Positions 20,424 to 38,915 of a stretch of 64,000 nucleotides of DNA are shown here, piece by piece. The notes beneath the pieces are model-generated. The model did not search any database. It was given only the letters and a program-made list of their open reading frames with translations, and was not told the origin of the DNA. The DNA is from Candidatus Moraniibacteriota bacterium (GTDB taxonomy: Bacteria; Patescibacteriota; Minisyncoccia; Moranbacterales; UBA1568), in contig CP064994.1 in assembly GCA_016699975.1 (NCBI GenBank), positions 1,222 through 65,221 of the forward strand, in the 5' to 3' direction. Both the position numbers and the translations under genes were made by a program. Position 1 is the first letter of the stretch. Each line of letters opens with the position of its first letter.

Positions 20424-23285
20424 TTGGCGATCAGAAAAAACCTCAAGAAGATAAAGAGGGAATGCTATACTGAAAGAAGTGATGGCACTCATTCGAAAAA
20501 TAAGAACAAGATTCCTATGTCACTTTCCGAATCTTCAAAAACAATATCGCCGCTCACGCTCACGACACTTTCGCCGGAAGAAACACTTTCGAAACTCGGC
20601 TCTTCGTGGGGAGGACTCCCAACCGAAGAAGCCGAAGCGCGTCTTGTCACGTGGGGAAAGAATGAACTCAAAAAAGAGCATCGCCTTCGCTGGAGTGAGA
20701 TTCTTCTCCATCAGTTTACTGATATCCTCATTTGGATTCTCCTCACGGCCGCGTTTTTCTCACTCATCTTCGGTGAATTTCGTGACACCACTATTATTCT
20801 CATAATCGTGTCCGTGAACGCCTTGATCGGATTCGTACAAGAATATAAAGCCGAGCGCATCCTGGACCGACTGCGCGAACTCGAAACCGATCGCGCGATT
20901 GTTATCCGAGACGGACAACGAAGCGAAATCAATTCGCGCGAACTGGTGCCAGGCGATATGATCGCTCTTGATGCCGGAACAACGGCGCCCGCCGATGTAC
21001 GACTCCTCGAGAGTTTTTCACTCAAGGTAAACACGATTCTTTTTACAGGTGAAGCTCATCCTCGCAAGAAAAACGCGCTTCCCCTTTCTGAAATGCCCGC
21101 CTCTCTTCCTGATGCCGAAAATATTATTCTCTCCGGAGAATCGGTAACGACAGGAGAAGCGCGCGGAGTTGTCATTGCGACCGGAAGCGCAACCGAGCTC
21201 GGCCACCTTGCCACCATGACTGCGCGCATCGAAGAAGAACCGACTCCGCTTCAGAAAAAAATGAGCCGCCTCGGAAAAGCAATCGCACTTCTCTCGCTCG
21301 TGATCGGCATTGCCGTGATAGCAATCGGGCGAAACGGCGGCCTCTCGTGGTACGACAACTTTCTCTTGGCGCTCGCCCTTGCTGTCTCGATCGTGCCTGA
21401 GGGGCTTCCGGCCGCCATCTCGATCGCCTTTGCACTCGGCATGAAGCGACTCCTCAAGTTTCGCATTCTCGCGAAAAAATTGAACGCCGTCGAAACACTC
21501 GGGTCCGTGACGACCATCTGTACAGATAAAACCGGCACTATCACAAAAGGAGAGCTCACCGTTACCCATATTATTCTCGGACACGACCTCTACGACGTAA
21601 GCGGCGAAGGCTACGAACCGCGTGGCGGATTTTTTCGAAACGGAAAAGCCGTAAGTCCCGCAAGTATTCTCGGCGCCGAAACGCTCTTCAAGATCGGGGT
21701 CCTGGCAAACAGCGCGAGCCTCATCACGCGGGATGATCGTGTGGAAGTGGTCGGCGACAGTACCGAGGGCGCCATCCTCGTCGCTTCGCGAAAGTACCAT
21801 CCGGATCCCGACTTTTTCCGCATCGGAGAAACAAAAATTTTTGAACATCCTTTCTCCTCGGAACGCATGCGCATGAGCGCGCTCTTCCAAAATTCCGGTG
21901 TGACATCGTACGTGAAAGGCTCCCCGGACGTTCTCCTCGCGCGCGCCACAAAGCAACTAAAGAACGGGCGCGAAGTTCCCTTTCCAGAAACGGACCGAAA
22001 CAAAACAAAAGCGCTCTACGATGAACTCTCCGCAAAAGCGCTTCGGGTTCTCGCTTTCGGGTACCGCACGCTCACGACGCTTCCAGAATCCGAACGAGCA
22101 GACGCCATGGAGCGCGACATTGTCTGGGTCGGGATGATGGCCATGGTCGACCCGCCACGTCCAGGCGTTCGAGATGCCATTCTCGAGTGCCGCGATCGCG
22201 GCCTTCGCGTCGTCATGATCACAGGAGACTACGAAGTGACCGCTGCTGCAATCGCGAAAAACATCGCTCTCATCGATGAAAGTCGTCCGTACAAAATCGT
22301 GAACGGGAAAGATCTCGCGACCCTTTCGGACGACGAACTCTTTTCGCAGATTCAAGAGAAAGATGCGGTCTTCGCGCGAATCACTCCCGAACAAAAACTG
22401 CGTATCGCAACCGTCCTTAAGGATCGCGGCGAAACAATTGCCATGACGGGCGATGGAGTGAACGACGCCCCTGCCCTCAAGAAAGCCGATATCGGCGTCG
22501 CGATGGGAATAACAGGAACGGACGTTTCAAAAGAAGCGGCGGACATGATCCTTCTCGACGATAATTTTTCGAACATCGTCTATGGTATTCGCGAGGGCCG
22601 CACCATTTTTTCCAATCTCAAAAAATTTGTTCATTACGTTTTCACCTCGAATGTGAGTGAGCTCTTTACCGTGCTCCTCGGATTCGCGCTCGGTATTCCC
22701 GCCCCTATTCTCGCGGTTCAAATTCTCGCAATCGACCTCGGCACCGACGTCTTCCCCTCGCTCGCACTCGGTGTCGAACCCGAAGAACCTCACTCGTCAA
22801 AACAAGGGAGCGCCGAAAATACCGCTTCCGTCATTGATAGAGAGGGCGTGGGTCGACTCCTTCGATTCGGACTCCTCATGGCACTTGGCGCTGTGACCGC
22901 CTTTCTCCTTTCTCTCCTTCGCGGCGGCTGGCAGTGGGGCGACGCAATCGACACACACTCCGCTCTCTATCAGAAATCGACCGCGGCGACCTACACAACA
23001 CTCGCCCTCACGCAAATGGCAAACCTCTTACAATCACGCTCGGCGACCCTCTCGTTTTTTTCACTCCCCTTCTTTTCGAATCCGTGGATCTGGATCTCCA
23101 TGACATTCTCGCTCTTTCTCCTCTGGGTGGTGACCTCTTCTCCCCTTCAGTCTCTCCTCTCTCTGCAGACGCCAGACGCACTCGACTGGATGACCGCAAT
23201 GACGTTTACGGTCCTTATCTTCACCTACGAAGAAATCCGAAAGCGACACGCACTCAAAAAAGCGGGTGTTGGAGAGAAATCTTAA
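20424..23285 (+). CDS. cation-transporting P-type ATPase (P2-type, Ca2+/Mg2+ SERCA/PMCA-like)
   Basis: 953 aa with TGES-like actuator, ICTDKTGTITKG phosphorylation motif, TGDGVNDAPALKKADIGVAMG hinge and 10 predicted TM helices. The real start is possibly Met32 (MSLSESSK...). Confidence 0.85.
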   Translation: MAIRKNLKKIKRECYTERSDGTHSKNKNKIPMSLSESSKTISPLTLTTLSPEETLSKLGSSWGGLPTEEAEARLVTWGKNELKKEHRLRWSEILLHQFTDILIWILLTAAFFSLIFGEFRDTTIILIIVSVNALIGFVQEYKAERILDRLRELETDRAIVIRDGQRSEINSRELVPGDMIALDAGTTAPADVRLLESFSLKVNTILFTGEAHPRKKNALPLSEMPASLPDAENIILSGESVTTGEARGVVIATGSATELGHLATMTARIEEEPTPLQKKMSRLGKAIALLSLVIGIAVIAIGRNGGLSWYDNFLLALALAVSIVPEGLPAAISIAFALGMKRLLKFRILAKKLNAVETLGSVTTICTDKTGTITKGELTVTHIILGHDLYDVSGEGYEPRGGFFRNGKAVSPASILGAETLFKIGVLANSASLITRDDRVEVVGDSTEGAILVASRKYHPDPDFFRIGETKIFEHPFSSERMRMSALFQNSGVTSYVKGSPDVLLARATKQLKNGREVPFPETDRNKTKALYDELSAKALRVLAFGYRTLTTLPESERADAMERDIVWVGMMAMVDPPRPGVRDAILECRDRGLRVVMITGDYEVTAAAIAKNIALIDESRPYKIVNGKDLATLSDDELFSQIQEKDAVFARITPEQKLRIATVLKDRGETIAMTGDGVNDAPALKKADIGVAMGITGTDVSKEAADMILLDDNFSNIVYGIREGRTIFSNLKKFVHYVFTSNVSELFTVLLGFALGIPAPILAVQILAIDLGTDVFPSLALGVEPEEPHSSKQGSAENTASVIDREGVGRLLRFGLLMALGAVTAFLLSLLRGGWQWGDAIDTHSALYQKSTAATYTTLALTQMANLLQSRSATLSFFSLPFFSNPWIWISMTFSLFLLWVVTSSPLQSLLSLQTPDALDWMTAMTFTVLIFTYEEIRKRHALKKAGVGEKS

Positions 23286-25882: not shown

Positions 25883-26074
25883 ATGGAAGAATCATTAGAG
25901 CAAATTTACAAATTCTACGAGGATTTGTTCAACAACCCTACCCGCAGGAGCGACAGAGGAAGTGAGCATGGCCGAGCTGATCAAGCTCGGAAATTCCGAA
26001 TTAACGGCCAACGTGAGTACTCTCAGATACTCAAGGATAATAGAACTGATCGAGCAAACTTTGTCATAACCTAA
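25883..26074 (+). CDS. orphan small ORF (63 aa) in AT-rich islet
   Basis: Lone plus-strand ORF with a strong intrinsic terminator 30 nt downstream. No recognisable domain; could be non-coding. Confidence 0.3.
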   Translation: MEESLEQIYKFYEDLFNNPTRRSDRGSEHGRADQARKFRINGQREYSQILKDNRTDRANFVIT

Positions 26075-26105
26075 TGGGAGATTCCCTATAGATATAAATA
26101 ATGGG

Positions 26106-26138
26106 AAAGGCAAAACACAATTGTTTTGCCTTTTTATT
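26106..26138 (+). terminator. rho-independent terminator (AAGGCAAAAC-acaau-GUUUUGCCUU + UUUAUU)
   Basis: gggaaaggcaaaacacaattgttttgcctttttattattg read directly from the sequence. Confidence 0.55.
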
Positions 26139-26253
26139 ATTGTGACTTCTGAGGCTCTAGAATGTAGAATGAGGACTCTTTACAATTTACAAGTTAAAAA
26201 AAGACTCTATTTTCTTCCCTGACAATACTTAAAATTCTTTCCCCCTCTCATTT

Positions 26254-27104
26254 TCACTCAAATCTCAAACTGTCCAGAAGATGATCAAAGCTCTCGCTCT
26301 CGATTTTCTTAAGGTCATCTTGAGTATACTGAGCCCTCTCCTCTGGTCTGACATAATGTTGCTTGTAGAGAACAAGAGATTTTTCCTTCGCAAGAGGAAT
26401 ATTCACTTCCATCCACTTTGAATACGGGTCTGGAGTATTCTCTCCGAAAGAAATGAAAGCCGAACGACCTCCAATGGTTTTCTTCAATGTAAATCGAAAA
26501 TTTATTGTAGGCAGTATAAAGAGGTCTATTTGAGTAGAACTTGCAGTCGGATAGGATATCCCACCGAGTGAAGACAGAGATGCTTTGGGAAATCCAGGAA
26601 AGTTTCCTGGATTAATATACTCATCAAAAACTTTTTTCATTTCTTCATATTTCATATTTTTGAGCATCTCCCAATTGAAGTCGAGATATTGCCCTGAAAG
26701 TTCCGGGTTTTCTTTGATGTTTCCAAAATAATTTGTGGCGAAAAACTCCCTCAACTCCTCTTCCGTCATCTCTCTTTCTCCAGAATTTCTTGTTTCTACA
26801 AAGTAGGTATCGGGAACTTCAAAGGAGAAGGTGATTTGCCCATCGTGGATGGTCACTTTTTTGTACGGACCTTCAATATCTTTAACGCCCGTGATTTTAC
26901 TTTCAGGAAGCACTTTGTTGTAGCGTTCGAATTCCGCTTGCGAGAAAGTGCTGCTTGAGGAGATTCTTGTACAGATTCGGCACGATTCACTGCTTGTGAA
27001 GCGCTCTGTTCTTTTCTGCGTTCGTATCGGAAGAGTACGGTGAGCAGTATTCCTCCAGTTACGAAAAGAGCGAAAATCACGATGGCGGTTTTTGTTGGTT
27101 TCAT
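26254..27104 (-). CDS. hypothetical signal-anchored protein, copy 2 of the shared-promoter/leader family; frameshifted (ORFs 26853..27104 + 26254..26913)
   Basis: N-terminus MKPTKTAIVIFALFVTGGILLTVLFRYERRKE matches the 1111..1782 N-terminus MKPTKIAIISFALLITGGILITTFLQYEYRKK. The body (26254..26913, GTG-initiated in another frame) has no similarity to the body of copy 1. Confidence 0.45.
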
Positions 27105-27137
27105 AGATTCGAAAAGAAGTGAGTGATTGTTGTTTGA

Positions 27138-27175
27138 GTTTATGATACGTCTATGATGAGCGTGTAAACAAAAAT
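27138..27175 (-). promoter_or_regulatory. promoter candidate conserved with 1811..1852 (minus strand TTTACA/TTGTTT ... TATCAT)
   Basis: Plus strand gtttatgatacgtct...gtgtaaacaaaaa. Same blocks as upstream of the paralogue at 1782. Confidence 0.3.
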
Positions 27176-27253
27176 TTTTTGAGCGGCACTATTCCTTCTT
27201 GCTCGTATCATGAAGCCTCTGAGTGGCAAGAAAAAAACTTACGCCTTCCTCAT

Positions 27254-27925
27254 TCACTCGCGTTCGGGTTGGGAATGGCGGAGCAGGAAAAGTGTAAAGA
27301 GGTACGGGATAACCGTGACGAGCGAGAAGAGAAACGAGAGAAGAAGAGCATGAAGCATCCATGCCGGACTCGCGAAATGGAGCGCCGTTTCGTGTATCAC
27401 AGTGAGCGGTTCGGTCACTACTTGCCAGCTATTAAGTCGCAAGAACCGTCCCAAATAGACTCCCACTCCTGAGAGACAAACGCTGAGGAGAAGAAAAAAA
27501 TCGGAGAGCATGCTCCCCCACATTCGCTCAAGGGTTGCTTTCATCGATACGAGAGAGAGGATTCCGAAAAGTATCCCAGCAGAGGCAAACGATCCCACTA
27601 AGAGAAAGTCGTAGAGGAAGAAAATCGAGGAAGCATATTCCCACGGAAGATGGATGAAGTCTGTCACGATATAGGGCGCATTGGGAAAAAAGAAAAACCA
27701 CACCAAAAGAATCGGCGCATTCCACAAGAAAGAGAGTGGATGCTTTTTCGAAATCCACTCAAAGAAGGAGGCCACAATATATGGAATAGCGGCGAGTCCA
27801 AGGTTCCACGTCAAGAAAAAGTATCCGTCGGTTTCCGTTGCAAGCATGCGTATCCCCAAGAGAAGAAACGCGATACTCGAAACGAAGCGAAGAAGCGCGT
27901 TCAAAAACGAGAGACGAGAATCCAT
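27254..27925 (-). CDS. DUF1361-family polytopic membrane protein
   Basis: 6-7 TM helices and the hallmark PNAPYIVTDFIHL motif of DUF1361. Last gene of the long minus-strand glycan operon. Confidence 0.5.
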   Translation of the reverse strand: MDSRLSFLNALLRFVSSIAFLLLGIRMLATETDGYFFLTWNLGLAAIPYIVASFFEWISKKHPLSFLWNAPILLVWFFFFPNAPYIVTDFIHLPWEYASSIFFLYDFLLVGSFASAGILFGILSLVSMKATLERMWGSMLSDFFLLLSVCLSGVGVYLGRFLRLNSWQVVTEPLTVIHETALHFASPAWMLHALLLSFLFSLVTVIPYLFTLFLLRHSQPERE

Positions 27926-28138
27926 ACGAAGAAAGTCGACAATGGAAATACCATTGTATCACGGCGGGAGAGGAGCAAAAGAAGTTATTCCTTCAGCTCG
28001 TAAATATCCGCGAATGGATATGAATCGACTTTGGTATAGCGCTCCAAAAATCGCGGATTATTTTTAAGAAGACGCCAGGTAGAATCACTGTCGGAATAGG
28101 AGCGGACGACAATAAATCGCGCATATTCGTCGGGCGTA

Positions 28139-29572
28139 TCAATCGCGCGGCGATAGTATTCCCCGTTCCTCGCGAATAAACCGTTTCATGGGAAGACCAG
28201 ACGAAAAAATAATGGAATCGTGCGAAGCAGCCGATATGAGAATATATCCGTCGCGCCCTCCTGCGTGCTCGCGAAGCCACGTCGAAACTTCGGTGACATT
28301 TTTTTGACTTGATCCCACACGACCGTCGTCGATGGTCACCGCGTCCGCGCTCGAAAATTGAAAGAAGAAGACGAGCGCGAGCGTCCCCACAAGAACAGAT
28401 CGAATCCCGGCCATTCGCTCCATCAAGAATCCTGCAAATATGGCGACCGACGGCATCATCATGATGCCGTAACGAATATTAAACCACGTGTCTCCCGAAA
28501 GCCCCTGAATAAAAAGAACGGAGTGTCCCAAATAGAGCGCGAGAATATTGAAGAAGAGTGGCGCAAAAAGGGCGAGTGAAGCGAAGCGCGCATTTCTCGA
28601 AACACGCCGATCAAGAAAGAGAAGAATGGTTCCGACAAATCCGAGCGCGAGGACCCACGCATTGGTATTATACGCGAGCGCATAGAAATACATCTTGGCT
28701 GATAAGAACCAATCACCTTTTGTCGGAAGCATGCCCGCAGACTGAAGATCCTGTTGCTGCGTGTGTGCGGAATAGGGGCCAAACGCGAAAAAGAGTGGGT
28801 CGCCAAAAATGAGGAGATTCCACAACAGCCACAGAAAGACACCGAATCCACCGAGCGTCGCGAACAAAATGAACCGCCCTTCCGCCTTCCGGTATCCGCC
28901 CTCCTTGAAACTCGAGAAAAAAATCATGAGGGAAGAAAAGAAGAGAAGAAACCATCCGTCGTAGCGCACAAGGGTCGCAAGCATCACAAAGAACGACGAC
29001 AGAATGAGAAATGACAAAATGCCACGCGTGTAGAAGAGAAGAAGAAAATATGCGGCGGCAGTCATCGTTCCCAAAAGAACAAGTTCGGTCATCGCGGTCG
29101 ACTGAAGATAGAGGATATTGATGTTCGCCGCAAAGAGGAAAACGCCCGTCAATCGGCCGACCCTCCCGACGCCAAGCTCCTTCAGGAAAAGATGAATAAG
29201 GACACCCGTCCCCACAAAAGAAATCATGGACCACAAGGCGCCCGCGAGTCCCGAGTGCCACATGAAATCATTCCACACCGTGAGCGTCATAAGGAGATGC
29301 GTAAGCGGAAGCCACACGCTTCCAAGTTGAGCAAATCCGGGGCTCAGTCCCTCGACGACGCGCCGCCCGATATCAAGATGGGAACGCGCATCGTTGTACG
29401 CAAGGCCGAGGCCGTTTTGATAATAGAAAACGAAGGCGATGACGGAGATGATCGACAAGACAAGAGAAAGAATCGAAACCTCGTATCGATCGAGAATCAT
29501 TTTGAGTCGCCCGAAAAAGCGAGGGGTGATATTTTCTTCCATATGAAAAGAATTGGAGGGTGAAATATTCAT
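28139..29572 (-). CDS. large polytopic membrane protein, putative GT-C fold glycosyltransferase (ArnT/PMT/YkcB-like)
   Basis: 477 aa, ~11 TM helices, N-proximal extracytoplasmic loop with acidic motif (NDARSHLDIGRR). Architecture matches lipid-linked-sugar GT-C transferases. Assignment rests on topology and context, not a strict motif. Confidence 0.45.
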   Translation of the reverse strand: MNISPSNSFHMEENITPRFFGRLKMILDRYEVSILSLVLSIISVIAFVFYYQNGLGLAYNDARSHLDIGRRVVEGLSPGFAQLGSVWLPLTHLLMTLTVWNDFMWHSGLAGALWSMISFVGTGVLIHLFLKELGVGRVGRLTGVFLFAANINILYLQSTAMTELVLLGTMTAAAYFLLLFYTRGILSFLILSSFFVMLATLVRYDGWFLLFFSSLMIFFSSFKEGGYRKAEGRFILFATLGGFGVFLWLLWNLLIFGDPLFFAFGPYSAHTQQQDLQSAGMLPTKGDWFLSAKMYFYALAYNTNAWVLALGFVGTILLFLDRRVSRNARFASLALFAPLFFNILALYLGHSVLFIQGLSGDTWFNIRYGIMMMPSVAIFAGFLMERMAGIRSVLVGTLALVFFFQFSSADAVTIDDGRVGSSQKNVTEVSTWLREHAGGRDGYILISAASHDSIIFSSGLPMKRFIREERGILSPRD

Positions 29573-31158
29573 ACGCGTCTCGAAGGAAAAGAAGATTCAC
29601 GAAGCAGTGCGTATAGAAAGAGGAACGCACTCACGACAACAAAAATGAAAAGTGAAACGCCATACGGTATCGCTCCGAAGAATCGGTGGAGCACACTTCG
29701 ATAAAGAAAGGCGGTGGACGTGTTTTGTTCCAAAGCTTGCCAGTTCCTCATCACGGTATACTTTTGTTCCTTTCCTGAGAGCGCTTCAAGTTCCAAGACC
29801 TGCACTTTTGGCGGATTGGCGATCGACGTAATAGCGCCGAGCGTATTCACCGAAAGAGAGAACGAGAAGAGCAAAAAGAACGCGGCCAGAAAAATGAACG
29901 ATCGCTTCCTTGATTCGAGCGCAATGGCGATTCCAATCGAGAGCATCGCATACGCCGGGATAAGGTAGCGCGATCCGAATGCCCATCCGCCCCACGGATC
30001 GCTCCACAATGAGTAGAGAAGAAACGTGAGCAAAGAAGTCCCCAAGAGAACGCGAAGTATTCCATACTCTTTGCGCACAAACAGCACGGCAAAACCAAAG
30101 AAGCCCAAGAAAATAACCGGCGTAAACCACAGCGCTCCGCGATCCGGACTTGTCAGATGGATCAGAAATCCATTGAGGAGCGCTCTCGTTTGAAAAAATC
30201 CGACAGCCGTTTTCTCCGACGCTTCTCGTTCAAGTCGATCGCGCGGAATTTGGTTCGGGTCCGTCGAAAGCGGAGAGCCGTCGGAAGAGATTGCAACAAC
30301 CGAAGGAAGTGTTCCCGATAACGTGAATGGATTCCCGTTTGCGAGGGAGTTGTACCACAAAAAAAAGAGGAGCGGGATCACGGCAAAGAATCCCGAGAAC
30401 AAAAGGAGGGGTCGGAAGGACACGCGCACACTCTCCGTATCCGAAGTGCGGAAGGAAAGGATTCGAGACAAAGCCCAGAGACCAACCGGCAAAAAGAGAA
30501 TCGCATTCGGATTGTCGAGCGCGATTCCCGAGACGAGCAGGAAGAACACCAACGCAAGCGACAGAAATCCTCGATTCGAGAGAAGGAGGAGGATAGCACT
30601 GAGGAGAAAGAGCACCGAAAAGTGGTGCTGATAGAGCGTCGTTGCGTAAGGAAATGCGGGCGTCGCCAAGAGAAATGTGAGCGCGCCAAGGGACGCGGCA
30701 TTTTTTCCGGCACCAAGGCGAAGCGCAATCGCGCGGATGAGAAACGCATTGGCAAAAGCCGCAATCGCTACAACGAGAGTGGCACCGACCACGGAGGCAC
30801 CAAAGAACTTCCCGATCAAATATCCGGGAATAAGGAGGAATGAAAGAAGCGGCGCAAAAAGCGACACGAATTTTCCATCCGGATTCCGCGCAAGGTCCGG
30901 TGTTGCAAGCCGCGCAACCGGAAGCGAAAAAAAGAGTGAACGATCCTCAACCACAGAGTAAAGAAGCGCGAACCGCCCACGTTCCGGTGAAAGCTCAAGC
31001 GGGCCATGATCTTTCCAAACGGGCGTCACAAGTTCCTGCGCTGTTGGATTTCCCGGAAGCCCGCGCACCGAGAAAAGAAGTGCGATCGCGCACACGAATC
31101 CGAACAAAAAGATGGAAAGTCGAGAGTATTTCATACGAATGTAAAAAGCATGTACCAA
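29569..31158 (-). CDS. large polytopic membrane protein, second putative GT-C-like glycosyltransferase
   Basis: 529 aa, ~13 TM helices, first loop ELSPERGRFALLYSVVEDRS (DE-like motif), large C-terminal periplasmic domain. Stop-start overlap with 28139..29572. Confidence 0.45.
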   Translation of the reverse strand: MVHAFYIRMKYSRLSIFLFGFVCAIALLFSVRGLPGNPTAQELVTPVWKDHGPLELSPERGRFALLYSVVEDRSLFFSLPVARLATPDLARNPDGKFVSLFAPLLSFLLIPGYLIGKFFGASVVGATLVVAIAAFANAFLIRAIALRLGAGKNAASLGALTFLLATPAFPYATTLYQHHFSVLFLLSAILLLLSNRGFLSLALVFFLLVSGIALDNPNAILFLPVGLWALSRILSFRTSDTESVRVSFRPLLLFSGFFAVIPLLFFLWYNSLANGNPFTLSGTLPSVVAISSDGSPLSTDPNQIPRDRLEREASEKTAVGFFQTRALLNGFLIHLTSPDRGALWFTPVIFLGFFGFAVLFVRKEYGILRVLLGTSLLTFLLYSLWSDPWGGWAFGSRYLIPAYAMLSIGIAIALESRKRSFIFLAAFFLLFSFSLSVNTLGAITSIANPPKVQVLELEALSGKEQKYTVMRNWQALEQNTSTAFLYRSVLHRFFGAIPYGVSLFIFVVVSAFLFLYALLRESSFPSRRV

Positions 31159-32227: not shown

Positions 32228-33052
32228 TCAAAACCATGACGGCAGCCACCGCTTCACCGTGGCGCGAAACACAATGGCACTCGTACTGAAAAGTGTTTCA
32301 CATTCCGAAACAGTGTGCGTGCGATCGACACCAACGCGCGGCACTCTGAAAGGATCAATCCCTGGCTCCACGAATCCGTCATCCATAGAAAGCGCGAGCA
32401 AAAATCCAGCATCTCGAAGCGCGCGGCGCACAACTTTTGTTGAACGTCCTCGCGGATACGCGAAGAAGCGAATGGGAACTCCCACTTCCGACTCAAGCAT
32501 GCGCTTTGCACCAACAGTTTCCTGAGCCACCTGCTTTGAAGATAAGGCCCACATGTCCCGGTGAGTCGCACTGTGGCAACCAATCTCCCAACCTGATTTG
32601 GCGAGAAATCGCAACTCCTCCGTACCGAGAAACGCGCGATCAGTTCCGAGTTCGCTCGTGTCGGCATGCGCGCGATCGGCAAGTGGAAAAACACTGGGTG
32701 TCACGCCGGAATCGCGAAGAAAATCGAAAACGTCGAGAATATCTCGGTAACCATCATCAAAACACAAGACGAATGAAGGTTCCGTAAAAGGTGCCTCTCC
32801 TGAAATGTGTCGCGCGAGTTCGGACAGAGACCGAGGTTTTCGTTTCCGGAGAAGACGAGTAATTTGTTGTTCGAAAGAAGCGCGATCGATACTATACCGC
32901 CAAGAATCTTCCGCAATACTGTGATAGGCAAAGACAACGACCCGCGGTTCGGGAATGCGAAAAACACGATCGAAAATTGTGAACATTCGATAGGCGATTC
33001 TTCGAAGACCAGAAAAAAGTTTCGTGCGAAATGACATAGTGTCCTTCCTCAT
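32228..33052 (-). CDS. polysaccharide deacetylase (NodB/CE4 family)
   Basis: VLCFDDGYRD (motif 1 D-D), CHSATHRD (His motif), FFAYPRGRS and the beta/alpha barrel order of CE4. Confidence 0.75.
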   Translation of the reverse strand: MRKDTMSFRTKLFSGLRRIAYRMFTIFDRVFRIPEPRVVVFAYHSIAEDSWRYSIDRASFEQQITRLLRKRKPRSLSELARHISGEAPFTEPSFVLCFDDGYRDILDVFDFLRDSGVTPSVFPLADRAHADTSELGTDRAFLGTEELRFLAKSGWEIGCHSATHRDMWALSSKQVAQETVGAKRMLESEVGVPIRFFAYPRGRSTKVVRRALRDAGFLLALSMDDGFVEPGIDPFRVPRVGVDRTHTVSECETLFSTSAIVFRATVKRWLPSWF

Positions 33053-33960
33053 TAACGGAGTCGTTTCGAAGTCGTTGAAACGTCCCAGAGTTCTTCGGGC
33101 GCGGGCGCAAAGAACGAGCGGATTCGTGTCGTCACAACGACGATCATATACGAGATTGAGCGAATCGGATGGCGAAAAAGAAGCGGCGAAGCAGAAAGGG
33201 CCCCACGAAAAAATGCGCTGACAGGAATATACATCTCTTGTTCGACGAGCTCTTTGGGAAATTCCTTCATGAGCGTTTCTTTCCCGCGAGAGAATCGAAA
33301 GCTTTGCTTATCATTGTCGGCGCTGGTCGCTGGCACCCGCAAAAAGAGTACCGCGTCTTTCACATACGCGTAGCGAAAATTTCGAGCGATGCAGGAGAGA
33401 TACGAATATGCGTCCTCCCCCACGCTCTGCGTAAATCGAAACTGAGCGAAGAACCTTCGCGAAAATGCACGGCACGCTCCATGACAGGTATATATGGTCT
33501 TCCCGCCCCGTATTGATTCGAAGAGCGTGTTTTTCAGGAGAAATCCTGTCTCGAGAATTCGTTCGAAACGGCCTCGTGCCGACATCGGACGAAGATCAGA
33601 CGAGGTCAATTCGGCTTTCCCTTCACGAATCGGCCGTGTCAGTTTTTCTAAAAATCGATCGTCATCAATCCGCATATCAGCGTTGACGAGCACGAGAACA
33701 TCGCTCTTCGTTCGTTCGAGAATCACATTTTGTCCACAGGCAAGCCCTTGTCGACCCGGTCCCTCGATCAATTCCACACGGGCATCTCGCAGCGAACGAA
33801 CAATTTCATTCGTTCTATCGGTGCTGCCATCGGAGTAGACAAGAATTTTCTCAAGCGAAAATTCTTCCGCGCTCTGCCGGAGAAGATCTCTGAGGAGAGC
33901 GCCGATATTTTCGGCTTCGTTGTAGGCCGGAATCCCGACCGTGACCGTAGCGTGTTTCAT
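33052..33960 (-). CDS. GT2-family glycosyltransferase (GT-A fold)
   Basis: VTVGIPAYNEAENIGALLRDL...YSDGSTDRT...VNADM..., the canonical GT2 N-terminal region and DxD. Confidence 0.75.
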   Translation of the reverse strand: MKHATVTVGIPAYNEAENIGALLRDLLRQSAEEFSLEKILVYSDGSTDRTNEIVRSLRDARVELIEGPGRQGLACGQNVILERTKSDVLVLVNADMRIDDDRFLEKLTRPIREGKAELTSSDLRPMSARGRFERILETGFLLKNTLFESIRGGKTIYTCHGACRAFSRRFFAQFRFTQSVGEDAYSYLSCIARNFRYAYVKDAVLFLRVPATSADNDKQSFRFSRGKETLMKEFPKELVEQEMYIPVSAFFRGALSASPLLFRHPIRSISYMIVVVTTRIRSFFAPAPEELWDVSTTSKRLR

Positions 33961-36900
33961 ACTTCGTTGTGCTTTGCGAATACCGCAGAAAACAATTGCT
34001 TACTCGACACGTCCCAATCGAAACCTTCCGCCCACTCGCGCGCCTCACGATTCATGCCGAGTCGAAGTTCCCGATCGCGAATAAGCAAGAGCATTTTTTC
34101 TGCGAAGAGATCGACATCACCGTACGGAATCAAAAACCCAGACTGAGTGTTGACCGAATCTCGCAGCCCCGGCACATCTGAGGCAATGACCGGCGTACCG
34201 CATGCATTCGCTTCGATTGAGACAATACCCCACCCTTCCATTTTTGACGGATTCACGAGCATCCATGCTTCCCGCAAAAGCCGCTTTTTTATTTCTTCGG
34301 AAACATATCCCAGAAATTCCACATGATTTGTTCCGAGTCGAAGTTCTTCGTAGGCGAGGTATTTAAGAGCCTGCTCTTCGTCACCGTTTCCTGCAATAAC
34401 AAGTCGCGCTTCAGGGCGCTCGGATCGTACCTGGTGAAATGCGCGAAGCAAGATATCAACCGACTTGTAAGCTTTGAGTCGGCCAAGATAGAGAATGAGC
34501 GGTGTCTCTGACTTTCGTTCCGAGGGTACAAATTCGTCGAGCAAAACACCGGGGTGGACAATGCTTACGCCCGCTTTTCCGAGACCGAGCGCGAGCAAAT
34601 CCTCACGACTTGATTCCGAAACAGTCACAAATGGAACATTCGCATACACAATCGGCATGAGCGTTCCCTCAAGAAAGTTCGCGAGGTGAGCGAATGGTTT
34701 CGGGAGATACTGAAAAAAAATCGTTCGATGCACGTGATGAAGAAGGCACACCACCGGTTCCTTCACATAGAGTGGTGTAAAAAATGGTATGCCGTTTTCG
34801 CAATCAATAATCACGTCGTAGCGTCCGCGAAAGCGCGTGAAGTAATACACAAACGCCCACACATACACCAGATAAAATCCGCCGCGGCGCACGATATGAA
34901 TACCGTCTCGGATCTCATGCCGGGGAAGTCGGCCATCATTTCCGGAAAACAGAGTGACAAAATGACCATCCGCGACCCACCGCTTCGCCATTTCCTCTAT
35001 ATACACTTCCGCGCCGCCGCCGTGTTGATGTTTTGTATCGCGCCAGTTCACGATGAGAACGCGTTTCCCGCCTGTGAGTGGTGAGAGTTCCGGGATCTTC
35101 CCGCGAAAGGCATCAAGAAAATCTCGAACACCGCGCTCGAGGAATCGAAATTGCGGTTCGAAAAGATGAAGAAGTTCGAGTATCCCCCACCCCACAAGTC
35201 CCGAAAAAAAGACGGCGTGCGCCACCGCTTCGAGAGAATCGTGGAAGAAAACGATACTCATCACTTCGCCGATCGCCACCAACAACGAGACTCCCACGAA
35301 AATATATTTTTTCTTCGCAAGCTGATACGTCACGATGAGCGTCGAGAGTGTGAAAAAAGCAGCAGAGAGGGTTGAGATGAGGAGGAGGGGTGCCACTTCC
35401 CGCACTTTTTCTCCAAAAAGAAATGGCGCAAAAAATTCTCCGAAGAGTCCGAAAAGAAGTACTCCCAGAATGCACGCCGCCATCGAAAACGCGTAGAGTA
35501 TTCGGAAAACATACCGTGTTCCTTTTTTGAGACCCTTATTTCGTCCAACGAGGGTCATCATGAACATGTTGGGCATGGTTCCGAAGAAGAAAACGATTTT
35601 CCCAACAAGCGACAGGAGCGCGTACCGACCAGCATCGTATTCTGGCAGAAAGTGTTTCGCCAAAAGAACATCGACGGTCGTAAACGTGGCCGTCGAAAGC
35701 GTGAGGAGAAGTGCCGCAACAAAAAACGTGAACGGAAACGCTTCTCGACTTTTTTCAAAGAGGAGCGCGCGCGATACCGAGGGAATGAAAAATCCCGATG
35801 CGACCGCTGCAACAAAAACACTCGCAGGAATAGAAAGATAGGCGAACTCCGCGTATCCGAAGGTCACAAACAAGAAAGCAACAAGAAGTTTCGTAAGCGC
35901 CTCGACAAAAGAAATAACTCCTGCCGCGCGAAAGCGAAGCGATCCTTGTAAGAATCCGAAGTTGCCAAACGAAAAAAGTCCGAGTGAGAGAAGCGGCGCA
36001 AAGGAAATGAGGAGGAAGAGATCGTCGACGTGAAAGAATCGCGCGAGCGTCGGCACGAGAAACAACCACAGCGCACTCAAAAATATCGAAACGATAAGTC
36101 CCGTTCGGAGAACCGAGGCCCACAGTGTACGCGCCTCTTTCGCTCCACACTTCGCGGAAAGAAACGATGTCTCGCGATTGATCATCGTCGAAAAGGGACT
36201 GATGAAAATGAGTGCGAGATACCACAACGTATTGAGGAGCGCGACTGCGCCGAGCGCTTCAAAGGGGAGCGTCCGTCCCAAAAATGCGCTAAAGGTGAAA
36301 TTAAGAACACTGGTCGCTATGATCGCCATCGCAAAAAATCCTTCAGGAGAAGTGAGAAGGCGAAGCATTTTTTGAAAAGAGCGTAAAAGAAAGGTGGGCG
36401 AAGAACTTACCGGAGCCACCTCGGAAATCCGTTCGGGAGACAGAATATTCTGCGACAGAATCGGTGACAAAGATGGGTCTCGTTGCGACAAAGGATCGGG
36501 CGAAGGAGGCAAATCAGCAACTGATTCCTTTCGTTTTTTCTTGAGAAGGTGAAGTCCGTGTGTCGTTTTTTCCCAGTAGTGCGGTTTCACGAGAAGCTGA
36601 TACGCCGCCATCATGGCTGCAAGAGAAACGAGAAGCCAGTAAAAAGGAATGAGAAAAACCCACTTCATGAGCGACCACTTTTCTCGTTTCGCACAGCCGA
36701 TCATGTAGTAGTACATCGCAAGAAAGTTTCCAAAGACGAGCGAAACGACCGCCATATAAAAGACGACACTCGGGTAGAGCGACTCGATTGCGCCCCCTAC
36801 GGAATCGCGAAATGTAAAATAGAGAATCGTTTCGATCCACAGGATAGGATTAATGAGCATGAAGGCGATTTTTCCGCCGACGATGAACTGAAAGAGAAGA

Positions 36901-38915
36901 GCATGAACGCCGTTTTTTCGGAAGAATTCTCCGGGACGACGCATGTGGACGAGATACGTTTGCATGTATCCTTTGATCCAACGGGAGCGCTGTCGAATCC
37001 AATTCCCAACTTTGCTGTTCGCTTCTTCGAGCGTAACGGAATCAATGATCGCCGTGCGAAATCCACGCGTGAAAATTCGCGCGCCCAAATCGCAGTCTTC
37101 CGTCACATTAAACGGATCCCATCCCTCAAGAGCGAGTAAATCTTCGCGACGAAAGTGATTGCTCGTGCCGCCAAGTGGAATCGACGTCGAAACCGACTGA
37201 AGCGCCGGAAGCATGACATCGAACCACAGCGAATACTCCGCCGTAAAAAGACGTGTCAGAATATTTTGATCGACATTGAAATAGTTGAGTTTCGCCTGAA
37301 GACACCACACCGTTCTCGGAAGCGTCTGAAATCCGAGATACGCCTTTTTCAGCTGAGCGGGATCGGGAATATCTTCCGCGTCATAGATCACCACATATTC
37401 CCCCGTCGCAACCGAAAGTCCATAGTTACAGGCTTTTGGTTTTGTCTTCGGTTCCGAATGCGGGACAACCACGATCTTCACAAACGAAGGGAGGGCCATA
37501 GCACGCGCCGCCTCAATCGTTTCACGATCGTTTTCTTCAAGAAGAAGAAGTGCTTCGAGTTTCTCTTTCGGCCATTCCATTTTCTCTATCGCTTCGAGAA
37601 ATCCCGGGAGCACGTGCGCTTCTCGATAGAGTGGGCACAGAACGGAATAGGTGGGAAGCGAATCGTCCGAAATGAGAGCAAGTTCTTCTTTCGTAAAAGA
37701 AATTTCGGGCGGTTTCTTGAGACTCCGCGAGACGAAGAAGAGATTAAAGAGTACATCAAAAAAGTAAATGCCGGTCAGGATGGCGGTAACCGTAATAAGC
37801 GTCCCGAGCGGAAAGAAAACGAGGCCACCAACAAAGAGAAAAACCAGAAGGAAAAGGAGGGCCTTTTGCCACAAAAGAAACGTGTGCAGCGCGGAAAATT
37901 CATGGGACAGCGTCGAGTGGGTAATGAATCGCTTCCTCGCATGAAGAACGCCCGCACCAATCATGCTCCGACCTGAATTCCCCTGCTCGGCCGGCATTAT
38001 GTGAAACGGAAGAAGGGAGCGGAATCGGAGACGAATTGCATTCCAACCAATCTCTCGGATTGCTTTCCCGAGAACGATTTTGGATTCGCCGGCCATGCGC
38101 TCCGAGAAAGTGATATCGTGCCCTCCAATGTGGTAGCCGTAGTGACGCGCGGTACGCAAAAATTCGAGATCGAATGTCCACGGATCGGGCGCGATGCGCA
38201 CTTCGCGCGCAATGGTGGAACGAAAAACCTTGAGGCCCGATTGTACGTCAACATCAAATCCGTGAAGAAGTTTCGAAAACACGAAAGCGAATCCGCGACT
38301 CGACAATTTCCGCACAAAACTCGTTTCACGTTCGACTCGATTCGCAACCACGATATCGAGTCCTTCGGAGAGTTTCTGCACCATGGCGGGAATCGCTTCG
38401 GGTGGATACTGCAAGTCCGCATCGATCATCGCTATCATCTCGAATCGAGCATGTTCGAATCCTTCAAGAATCGAAAACGCTTTTCCGGGTCTCCCCTTTT
38501 TGACATGCAAAAAAACCGGGAATTGGTTTTTCAACTTCTCGATTTGGTCGGTGGTTCCATCGCTTGAGTGATCATCGATCACGTGAATTTCATATTCAAT
38601 TCCCGCGCCACGAATCGACGCGTCAAGACGACGGATGAGTTCCGCTATATTGCCCGCTTCGTTCAAGGTCGGTACTAAGATCGAAAGGCGTTTCTTGTCC
38701 ATCATATTTTTTGCGAGCTGCCGTTTCGCTTGAGTAAGGAAAGACTCTTCCTCGTACGAAGAACGAGAAAGAGTCCGTCTTTTCCCCAAGCGACCAGCGA
38801 GTGGCCCGTACATAAATGCGCGAAATGTCAGCCTAAATGAACACTTGAATTTTGTCAAGAGGACGGGCCCATTGTGACAAGCTCGAGAATCAAGTACGAT
38901 AACGAGAGCAATCAC
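33957..38915 (-). CDS. giant multidomain glycan-synthesis protein: GT2 (Dpm1/GtrB-like) + processive membrane GT2 synthase (QxxRW) + MOP/Wzx-like flippase domain + GT4
   Basis: Single uninterrupted 1652-aa ORF. aa ~75-320: LSILVPTLNEAGNI...IDDHSSDGT...IDADLQYP. aa ~400-760: TM helices then YSVLCPLYREAHV...YDAEDIPDP...TEDCDLG...QRSRWIKGY plus C-terminal TMs. Then a P/S-rich linker (KKKRKESVADLPPSPDPLSQRDPSLSP). aa ~800-1230: 12-14 TM helices with polysaccharide-biosynthesis/MOP-like composition. aa ~1250-1652: GT4 with EGWGIVSIEANACGTPVIASDVPGLRD. Probable true start is MMDKKR (~38705). Confidence 0.75.
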   Translation of the reverse strand: MIALVIVLDSRACHNGPVLLTKFKCSFRLTFRAFMYGPLAGRLGKRRTLSRSSYEEESFLTQAKRQLAKNMMDKKRLSILVPTLNEAGNIAELIRRLDASIRGAGIEYEIHVIDDHSSDGTTDQIEKLKNQFPVFLHVKKGRPGKAFSILEGFEHARFEMIAMIDADLQYPPEAIPAMVQKLSEGLDIVVANRVERETSFVRKLSSRGFAFVFSKLLHGFDVDVQSGLKVFRSTIAREVRIAPDPWTFDLEFLRTARHYGYHIGGHDITFSERMAGESKIVLGKAIREIGWNAIRLRFRSLLPFHIMPAEQGNSGRSMIGAGVLHARKRFITHSTLSHEFSALHTFLLWQKALLFLLVFLFVGGLVFFPLGTLITVTAILTGIYFFDVLFNLFFVSRSLKKPPEISFTKEELALISDDSLPTYSVLCPLYREAHVLPGFLEAIEKMEWPKEKLEALLLLEENDRETIEAARAMALPSFVKIVVVPHSEPKTKPKACNYGLSVATGEYVVIYDAEDIPDPAQLKKAYLGFQTLPRTVWCLQAKLNYFNVDQNILTRLFTAEYSLWFDVMLPALQSVSTSIPLGGTSNHFRREDLLALEGWDPFNVTEDCDLGARIFTRGFRTAIIDSVTLEEANSKVGNWIRQRSRWIKGYMQTYLVHMRRPGEFFRKNGVHALLFQFIVGGKIAFMLINPILWIETILYFTFRDSVGGAIESLYPSVVFYMAVVSLVFGNFLAMYYYMIGCAKREKWSLMKWVFLIPFYWLLVSLAAMMAAYQLLVKPHYWEKTTHGLHLLKKKRKESVADLPPSPDPLSQRDPSLSPILSQNILSPERISEVAPVSSSPTFLLRSFQKMLRLLTSPEGFFAMAIIATSVLNFTFSAFLGRTLPFEALGAVALLNTLWYLALIFISPFSTMINRETSFLSAKCGAKEARTLWASVLRTGLIVSIFLSALWLFLVPTLARFFHVDDLFLLISFAPLLSLGLFSFGNFGFLQGSLRFRAAGVISFVEALTKLLVAFLFVTFGYAEFAYLSIPASVFVAAVASGFFIPSVSRALLFEKSREAFPFTFFVAALLLTLSTATFTTVDVLLAKHFLPEYDAGRYALLSLVGKIVFFFGTMPNMFMMTLVGRNKGLKKGTRYVFRILYAFSMAACILGVLLFGLFGEFFAPFLFGEKVREVAPLLLISTLSAAFFTLSTLIVTYQLAKKKYIFVGVSLLVAIGEVMSIVFFHDSLEAVAHAVFFSGLVGWGILELLHLFEPQFRFLERGVRDFLDAFRGKIPELSPLTGGKRVLIVNWRDTKHQHGGGAEVYIEEMAKRWVADGHFVTLFSGNDGRLPRHEIRDGIHIVRRGGFYLVYVWAFVYYFTRFRGRYDVIIDCENGIPFFTPLYVKEPVVCLLHHVHRTIFFQYLPKPFAHLANFLEGTLMPIVYANVPFVTVSESSREDLLALGLGKAGVSIVHPGVLLDEFVPSERKSETPLILYLGRLKAYKSVDILLRAFHQVRSERPEARLVIAGNGDEEQALKYLAYEELRLGTNHVEFLGYVSEEIKKRLLREAWMLVNPSKMEGWGIVSIEANACGTPVIASDVPGLRDSVNTQSGFLIPYGDVDLFAEKMLLLIRDRELRLGMNREAREWAEGFDWDVSSKQLFSAVFAKHNEV

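Follow-up and report, generated by a model that had tools for sequence, protein, structure and literature searches.

A glycosyltransferase-flippase fusion gene

We analysed a window of 64,000 nucleotides from the ultra-small, uncultured Candidatus Moraniibacteriota bacterium (GenBank assembly GCA_016699975.1, contig CP064994.1), in which a single giant gene on the minus strand encodes two family 2 glycosyltransferase (GT2) modules, a membrane transporter of the MOP superfamily and a family 4 glycosyltransferase (GT4) in one polypeptide. An earlier, sequence-only reading of this DNA had reported an uninterrupted frame at 33957..38915 (-). The frame is indeed there, with 1,652 codons and no stop, a run that we computed to have a chance of about 4e-35 in random sequence. 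Its upstream end is a GTG at 38915, and the protein itself is most likely not the 1652 aa first proposed. Residues 1-70, numbered from this GTG, fall in gaps in 96-98% of homologues and are absent from all 119 that were aligned. An NCBI protein that is 100% identical, labelled as a metagenome-assembled genome (MAG) product of Candidatus Moraniibacteriota, starts at M71, is 1,582 aa long and covers query residues 71-1652. Since residues 1-70 are not conserved and the identical protein begins at M71, we conclude that the true coding sequence is most likely 33957..38705 (-), from M71 to the stop. The features of the giant gene are as follows (TM, transmembrane; AF2, AlphaFold2; HAS, hyaluronan synthase).

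33957..38705 (-), GT2a-GT2b-MOP-GT4 fusion protein, most likely coding sequence (open reading frame, identical NCBI protein, alignment gaps)
38016..38699 (-), GT2a, residues ~73-300, GT-A domain like those of DPMS, ArnC and GtrB
38403..38426 (-), IDADLQYP with the DxD motif, residues 164-171
37716..38015 (-), GT2a-GT2b junction, residues ~301-400: amphipathic interface helix, small beta-hairpin and TM hairpin (hydropathy, AF2, conservation)
36936..37703 (-), GT2b catalytic domain, residues ~405-660, cellulose-synthase-like GT-A
37095..37103 (-), TED of GT2b, residues 605-607
36978..36992 (-), QRSRW of GT2b, residues 642-646
36546..36935 (-), membrane part of GT2b, residues ~661-790 (AF2, alignment to BcsA and HAS, loop charge)
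36555..36587 (-), KPHYWEKTTHG, gating-loop-like and nearly invariant, residues 777-787
36366..36545 (-), variable basic, P/S-rich linker between GT2b and MOP, residues ~791-850 (conservation, gaps, split junctions)
35100..36365 (-), predicted 12-TM flippase module of the MOP superfamily (PST/Wzx type), residues ~851-1272, both termini cytoplasmic
33957..35063 (-), GT4, retaining, GT-B fold, residues ~1285-1652 and stop (Pfam, NCBIfam, PDB, EX7E)
34212..34238 (-), EX7E motif EGWGIVSIE, residues 1560-1568

Three glycosyltransferase modules

All of the motifs quoted in the sequence-only reading were found, IDADLQYP at residue 164, QRSRW at residue 642 and EGWGIVSIEANACGTPVIAS at residue 1560, and a per-domain Pfam scan confirmed its three glycosyltransferase modules (GT2, Glyco_tranf_2_3, and Glyco_transf_4 with Glycos_transf_1). 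The first, GT2a, matches the Pfam GT2 family over residues 78-207 (1.7e-35). Its GT-A domain resembles DPMS, ArnC and GtrB in sequence and fold and keeps a DxD motif (DAD, residues 165-167), which identifies it, by homology, as a DPMS/ArnC/GtrB-type enzyme. Enzymes of this class work at the cytoplasmic face of the membrane, with a nucleotide sugar as donor and polyprenyl phosphate as acceptor of the sugar. The juxtamembrane interface helix and C-terminal TM hairpin expected of a polyprenyl-phosphate GT2 are both present in an AF2 model of the N-terminal half (helices 212-228, 278-297 and 299-330 in the numbering of that model), and the TM hairpin that follows GT2a comprises helices at about 348-367 and 369-400. 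GT2a did not reach the NCBIfam equivalog cutoffs for ArnC (81.4 vs. 529 bits), PgfS (71 vs. 500) or AglJ (55 vs. 325) and, because its scores lie far below every such cutoff, it is no orthologue of any named enzyme.

The second module, GT2b, is the best-conserved part of the giant protein and matches Pfam Glyco_tranf_2_3 over residues 421-649 (2.2e-32). In addition to TED and QRSRW, it carries a KAGN-like KPKACNYG and a DxD motif within YDAED; YDAED, VTEDCD and QRSRW align with the motifs of Escherichia coli BcsA and are invariant or nearly so in the family. The alignment extends well past a GT-A domain, over 382 residues to BcsA and 373 to HAS. Past the QRSRW interface helix, the membrane part in the AF2 model consists of TM helices at 671-701 and 716-743, followed by a hydrophobic interface-type helix at 747-776, which brings the synthase part to about four TM helices plus interface helices. 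KPHYWEKTTHG lies 139 aa past QRSRW, while in BcsA NPHKGKFNVTAKG lies 124 aa past QRIRW, a likeness of motif and spacing only. BcsA and the class I hyaluronan synthases are membrane-integrated processive GT2 enzymes of the synthase-dependent route. Judged from its sequence, GT2b is a membrane-integrated GT2 of the cellulose-synthase/hyaluronan-synthase type, with all of the BcsA catalytic motifs and a gating-loop-like motif.

The C-terminal module matches Pfam Glycos_transf_1 (PF00534) over residues 1465-1628 (7.3e-40, 136.7 bits) and Glyco_transf_4 (PF13439) over residues 1300-1459 (9.3e-14, 52.2 bits). Its best matches among solved structures in the PDB were PimA (1.1e-18), PimB' and MshA, and its best NCBIfam matches, both partial, were MshA and BshA; the MshA equivalog cutoff was not reached (99.5 vs. 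462.5 bits). These similarities identify GT4 as a predicted cytoplasmic, retaining GT-B enzyme that is nearest to the PimA/MshA type.

Linker, flippase module and predicted topology

The P/S/K-rich linker that had been described as joining the modules occurs at the GT2b-MOP junction only, the GT2a-GT2b and MOP-GT4 junctions being conserved and nearly constant in length across the family. Residues ~791-850 are the sole poorly conserved segment of the protein (conservation 0.10-0.13, gaps about 0.6). Across the family this linker ranges from 21 to 199 aa (median 52), contains 11.6% K and 7.5% R, and is the site at which the gene is split in many relatives.

Instead of the flippase-like module of about 13 TM helices that had been noted, structure prediction yielded 12 TM helices in a two-lobed (6+6) MOP fold, plus a terminal amphipathic helix. 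A MOP/Wzx signal could not be found in the sequence of the window's own copy, which had no Pfam match even at E<=10, and it emerged from structure prediction and from orthologues. Among 19 orthologous modules searched against Pfam, seven matched PF01943, one PF13440 and three MatE, and a close stand-alone relative (P0241) passed the thresholds of both PF01943 and PF13440. Because the window copy lacks a Pfam match, its MOP identity rests on the predicted structure and, by transitivity, on these orthologues, which together identify the module as a modelled 12-TM MOP transporter of the PST/Wzx type with a putative role in flipping lipid-linked glycans. An NCBIfam match to V-ATPase subunit I was rejected as spurious, and the MOP family profile gave no sequence signal against E. 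coli WzxE.

Topology was assessed from predicted helices, loop charges and knowledge of the families. Strong basic charge was seen in the loops at 658-670, 744-746 and 777-800, but not in that at 702-715. From these loops and the K/R-rich linker, we place the linker, both ends of the MOP module and all three catalytic domains on the cytoplasmic side. A coherent predicted topology results, a point that the sequence-only reading had suggested should be checked: a synthase part with 2+2 TM helices is followed by the basic linker in the cytoplasm and then by the 12-TM MOP module, which starts and ends inside.

Fused and split forms across Patescibacteria

A protein search retrieved >118 full-length clusters of 1,530-1,730 aa with 49-70% identity, drawn from NCBI, JGI, ENA and Logan assemblies and labelled Patescibacteria where named. 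The only database label of the giant protein is "glycosyltransferase". We considered whether matches with "44% coverage" had another architecture and rejected this, since the protein is unchanged apart from a longer linker, which breaks up the BLAST alignment. We also surveyed loci in one genome per species by a pattern-limited scan, finding relatives in at least 171 genomes and keeping 80 loci. All four modules were fused in one frame in 50 of these 80, which, with the full-length clusters, bears out the earlier judgement that the continuity of the frame is real and runs counter to homologues always being split into three or four genes. A MOP-GT4 form was found at 15 of the 80 loci, mostly with a separate GT2a-GT2b gene ahead of it, a GT2b-MOP-GT4 form at nine and MOP alone at five. 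The order of the modules was unchanged throughout, and the same domain order recurs across the phylum, fused or split, in genomes of the candidate phyla radiation (CPR), where it had been proposed to look for it. The locus is conserved in Parcubacteria, Microgenomates, Saccharibacteria and others.

The best 149 representatives from an exhaustive search with a MOP-module profile comprised 71 with MOP alone, 39 MOP-GT4, 12 MOP-GT2, 11 GT2b-MOP-GT4, eight full fusions and rare permutations. It is MOP-GT4 that stays fused most persistently. The variable linker and the MOP/GT4 junction are where fused and split forms diverge; one locus (L004) is arranged as [GT2a-GT2b], [MOP] and [GT4] in separate genes and another (L005) as [..GT2b] and [MOP-GT4]. 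The TM hairpin between the two GT2 modules goes with GT2a in one natural split form (L072) and with GT2b in three (L053, L068 and L069). In most cases the split junction has an ATG 2-10 nt past the upstream stop, a few codons ahead of the MOP domain, and the long linker is absent from split loci. This close spacing and the lack of a linker indicate that the split forms are real, tightly coupled genes. Since the split relatives carry the same modules in the same order as adjacent genes, the giant open reading frame is an operon fused in frame.

Several of the loci are labelled Saccharibacteria or Saccharimonadales (e.g., L036). Many MAGs with the locus, assembled as third-party data, are titled "uncultured Bdellovibrionales" or "uncultured Gammaproteobacteria" (L009, L010, L012, L014, L033, L035 and others), and two further records are titled Verrucomicrobiia (P0120/L013) and Candidatus Fimivivens (P0031/L027). 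These non-patescibacterial titles probably reflect mislabelled or mis-binned records rather than a wider host range.

Neighbouring genes of the glycan locus

Five genes follow the giant gene on the same strand.

33052..33960 (-), small soluble GT2, 302 aa, downstream, its start overlapping the stop of the giant gene by 4 nt
32228..33052 (-), CE4 polysaccharide-deacetylase-family protein, 274 aa
31171..32175 (-), APH/kinase-fold-like protein, 334 aa (PF01636, 8.9e-5)
29569..31134 (-), M529, Pfam-less polytopic membrane protein, 521 aa as called in databases (synteny, homologues)
27985..29572 (-), M477, Pfam-less polytopic membrane protein, last gene of the locus (synteny)

Related loci contain one to five paralogues of the soluble GT2. 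The CE4 protein, found in 26 of 53 complete loci, keeps the catalytic FDDG/HSxxH motifs (as FDDG and HSATH) and has neither a signal peptide nor a TM helix. In locus L003 it is fused between a GT2 and a kinase-like domain; L001 has a PIG-L deacetylase instead, fused to GT2 and GT4. From the missing export signal and the fusion to a GT2 and a kinase fold we infer that CE4 must act in the cytoplasm on an intermediate and not on exported polymer. No sequence similarity to E. coli ArnD was detectable. The APH-like protein, which has homologues in L002 and L003, is a weak match just under threshold (22.8 bits vs. a PF01636 cutoff of 23.2).

M529 and M477, whose families both occur across Patescibacteria, close the locus. 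M529 represents a CPR-wide family that occupies the penultimate position, and all 30 members compared with the NCBIfam family NF047440 ("LA_3751/LA_3752 putative glycosyltransferase") matched it, the best at 7.5e-18 and all below the cutoff. This makes M529 a distant relative of the LA_3751/LA_3752 family and a candidate extracytoplasmic transferase. Pfam returned only noise for the 30 members, including PMT at E 0.53 in one of them. M477, whose relatives are about 540 aa long and 61-79% identical, is better conserved than the giant enzyme and had no Pfam or PDB match. Neither protein matched PDB sequences at E<=10, with single sequences or profiles, and hhalign of M529 against M477 gave a probability of 15%. 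Comparisons of family profiles with E. coli ArnT, WaaL and WzyE were negative (M529 against ArnT, 5.6 bits) and carry no weight, since by the same method the MOP profile also misses WzxE.

In three distant loci (L001-L003) M529 (43-46% identity) and M477 (61-66%) lie downstream of the giant gene, and one or both close 48 of the 51 loci that have at least 8 kb of downstream sequence, with zero to six tailoring domains between them and the core. In the window M477 is 477 aa long. Close to the 3' end of the gene, a GGGG run around 28164-28186 marks a frameshift; the conserved C-terminal ~60 aa (…DSTWRLLKNNP…YPFADIYELK) carry on in another frame, reflecting either a sequencing indel or a recent pseudogene.

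Further in-frame fusions were observed in related loci: GT2-CE4-APH (L003 14886-17702, 938 aa), GT2-GT4-PIG-L (L001 14875-17715, 946 aa), MOP-GT4-GNAT/FemAB-like (P0260, 1,195 aa) and MOP-GT4-GT2 (P0249, 1,119 aa). M529 is fused to a GT4 in L003, and a homologue (P0454) also has GT2 domains. On the whole, the glycan locus seems prone to gene fusion.

No phosphoglycosyltransferase (PF02397 or PF00953) was found among the 20 open reading frames scanned from 12.8 to 52.1 kb of the window, or in L001 or L002; one lies upstream of the locus in L003 only. Wzy_C and Wzz likewise had no match among the frames scanned in the window. Directly past the giant gene of L002 (14851-18542, Niyogibacteria-type) are NTP-transferase, dehydratase/epimerase-family and dTDP-sugar isomerase genes, belonging to the RmlA/B/C families of dTDP-sugar synthesis, and L001 has a phosphomannomutase gene and two nucleotidyltransferase genes ahead of its giant gene. 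These sugar genes hint that donor sugars differ between lineages.

Elsewhere in the window, a DUF1361 membrane protein gene (27254-27925, -) lies directly downstream of M477. Divergent from the giant gene is a NiFe-hydrogenase small-subunit-like gene (PF01058; 38932-39462, +), with a large-subunit-like gene (PF00374; 41779-43155, +) 2.3 kb past it. A P-type cation ATPase at 49550-52137 (-) is broken into two overlapping frames of 602 and 297 aa just ahead of its GDGxND motif, a second probable frameshift of the assembly; an intact paralogue of 953 aa is present at 20424-23285 (+). The G+C content is 0.40 at 1-2000 and 0.43 at 26001-28000, compared to a window average of ~0.50. No tRNA genes were found in the window.

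A proposed two-track model and its alternatives

We consider the giant open reading frame to be a conserved in-frame operon fusion that forms the membrane core of a Patescibacteria-wide envelope-glycan pathway with two tracks, a reading to which we assign a probability of roughly 60%. On the first track, GT2b would polymerise, and probably translocate, a conserved beta-linked backbone. On the second, running in parallel, lipid-linked sugars or short lipid-linked glycans would be made on the inner face of the membrane: GT2a would make a polyprenyl-P-sugar, GT4 and the variable soluble GT2 and GT4 enzymes would build on a lipid acceptor, and N-acetylhexosamine (HexNAc) may be de-N-acetylated by the cytoplasmic CE4 or, in some relatives, by PIG-L. 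The MOP module, tethered through the fusion to the enzymes that supply its substrate, would flip the lipid-linked units in cis, and on the outer side of the membrane M529 and M477 could use the flipped units to decorate the polymer, to extend it or to anchor it. The sequence-only reading had proposed a fused machine that initiates, polymerises, translocates and decorates; its modules and topology are supported by our analysis, and polymerisation and translocation are steps that we infer. More tentatively, the chain may act as an obligate physical complex on a hybrid route that fits none of the Wzx/Wzy, ABC transporter and synthase routes and makes a signature glycopolymer or lipoglycan of Patescibacteria.

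The main rival to the two-track model is a single lipid-linked-oligosaccharide track, Wzx/Wzy-like or archaeal Agl-like, without synthase-dependent export, which we regard as rather unlikely. GT2a would be the initiating enzyme, with polyprenyl phosphate as its acceptor where AglJ uses dolichyl phosphate; GT2b would be non-processive or short-processive on a lipid-linked acceptor, its membrane part binding lipid as that of PcManGT may; GT4 and the soluble glycosyltransferases would finish the unit, MOP would flip it, and M529 and M477 would polymerise it or ligate it to a wall polymer or surface protein. The variable tailoring block is more readily accommodated by such a pathway and counts against the two-track model, and papers that cite PcManGT leave the processivity of that enzyme unsettled. 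However, no motif of the processive-synthase set is missing from GT2b, whose gating-loop-like motif is nearly invariant and spaced much as in BcsA. GT2b is also the most conserved of the modules, with its best alignments, over about 380 residues, to BcsA and HAS. Furthermore, no phosphoglycosyltransferase, Wzy_C or co-polymerase was seen among the open reading frames scanned around the locus or in conserved synteny.

It is doubtful that the main role of the MOP-GT4 core is in a lipoglycan pathway like those of glycosylphosphatidylinositol (GPI) or phosphatidylinositol mannosides, in which GT4 would add alpha-HexNAc to a phospholipid or polyprenyl-P, CE4 or PIG-L would de-N-acetylate it in the cytoplasm, MOP would flip the glycolipid, and M529 and M477 would extend it outside with the polyprenyl-P-sugar of GT2a, the GT2b glycan being unrelated or attached. 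MOP-GT4 is the commonest fused pair among the MOP representatives (39/149) and occurs at 15/80 loci, GT2a is DPM1-like, and the best matches of GT4 are PimA, MshA and BshA. Enzymes of this type are classically followed by a deacetylase (MshB, BshB, PIG-L), and the deacetylase here is cytoplasmic and in L001 is a PIG-L. On the other hand, CE4 is present in only about half of the complete loci, and comparisons with PDB, Pfam and profiles gave no evidence that M529 or M477 is a GT-C enzyme. This pathway also overlaps with the two-track model and does not exclude it.

A chance fusion of glycosyltransferases to a cation-coupled efflux pump of the MATE type is very improbable as an explanation of the MOP module, given that orthologous modules match PF01943 (7/19) and PF13440 (1), that the closest stand-alone relative passes both PST-family thresholds, and that the module is always embedded between glycosyltransferases in a glycan locus. 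We reject as next to impossible a joining of neighbouring genes by assembly or sequencing error or a mis-called frame: although the assembly has indels (the M477 3' end and the split P-type ATPase) and the 100% identical database protein is most likely from the same assembly, full-length fusions recur in >118 clusters from many sources and, uninterrupted, in 50/80 species-representative genomes, junction lengths are conserved except at the linker, and split forms have clean start and stop signals and no linker. The indels elsewhere make the intact 4.7-kb frame more meaningful, not less.

Significance for the Patescibacteria envelope

Patescibacteria are a very large and almost wholly uncultured share of bacterial diversity whose envelope chemistry is essentially unknown. 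Because it is conserved across the phylum, in at least 171 species representatives, the locus is a strong candidate for their main surface-glycan machinery, and the giant protein probably builds the Patescibacteria surface glycan. The series of fused, partly fused and split forms provides Rosetta-stone evidence of cooperation between a cellulose-synthase-type enzyme, a polyprenyl-P-sugar synthase, a Wzx-type flippase and a GT4. It likewise suggests a physical coupling between flippases and the enzymes supplying their substrates, which is difficult to examine when the proteins are separate, and a single-chain synthase-flippase would be an attractive target for cryo-electron microscopy. In addition, the locus points to M529 and M477 as probable new extracytoplasmic glycan-processing enzymes.

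Comparison with known systems

A literature search for the giant fusion or for CPR glycan machinery returned nothing relevant. We compared its parts with characterised systems. The logic of the two-track model is that of ArnC-ArnD(CE4)-ArnT, of LgmA-LgmC-LgmB in Bordetella, and of GPI synthesis, which proceeds through PIG-A (a GT4), PIG-L, flipping and DPM1-dependent GT-C steps. The cytoplasmic CE4 would take the place of ArnD or LgmC in the pathway. There is precedent for a polymer of separate origin being modified by the combination of a GT-A synthase of undecaprenyl phosphate (C55-P)-sugar, a Wzx-type flippase and a polytopic transferase, GacK being a Wzx-type flippase proposed to carry N-acetylglucosamine-P-undecaprenol for the decoration of a polymer exported otherwise (10.1101/180810; PMC8035078). 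The GT-A C55-P-sugar synthase and the flippase by which multi-component transmembrane glycosylation is in part defined (PMC8035078) are both found here by homology and fold. Like GtrA/B/V, CsbB-GtcA-YfhO and GacI/J/K/L, the locus thus has a C55-P-sugar synthase, a flippase and a candidate polytopic extracytoplasmic transferase. In contrast to those systems, the synthase-type backbone enzyme, C55-P-sugar synthase, flippase and GT4 form one polypeptide, and the candidate extracytoplasmic enzymes M529 and M477 come from uncharacterised families.

Module by module, GT2a differs from DPMS, ArnC and GtrB in that its TM hairpin is common to it and to the synthase that follows. GT2b shares its catalytic motif set and a predicted membrane-integrated build with BcsA and the class I hyaluronan synthases, from which it differs in being joined to a DPMS-like GT2 at its N-terminus and to a MOP flippase and GT4 at its C-terminus. 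Compared to BcsA, which has eight TM helices, the synthase part has about four plus interface helices, with no PilZ domain and no BcsB-like partner that we could see. The MOP module is likened to Wzx/PST flippases (WzxE, GacK) and to the archaeal PST-type PF0708, whereas the window copy is too diverged for Pfam and is fused covalently to glycosyltransferases, and no Wzy, Wzz or phosphoglycosyltransferase was seen in the conserved locus. GT4 resembles PimA, MshA, BshA and PIG-A in its GT-B fold Pfam domains, its EX7E motif and the deacetylase gene nearby; unlike them, it is joined to the C-terminus of a flippase and scores below the equivalog cutoffs. Every module comes from a known family, and in kind none of this is new. 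The novelty lies in the conserved joining of all four modules (BcsA-type synthase, DPMS-type enzyme, Wzx-type flippase and GT4) in one chain, in the natural fused-to-split series and in the two uncharacterised membrane families tied to the locus.

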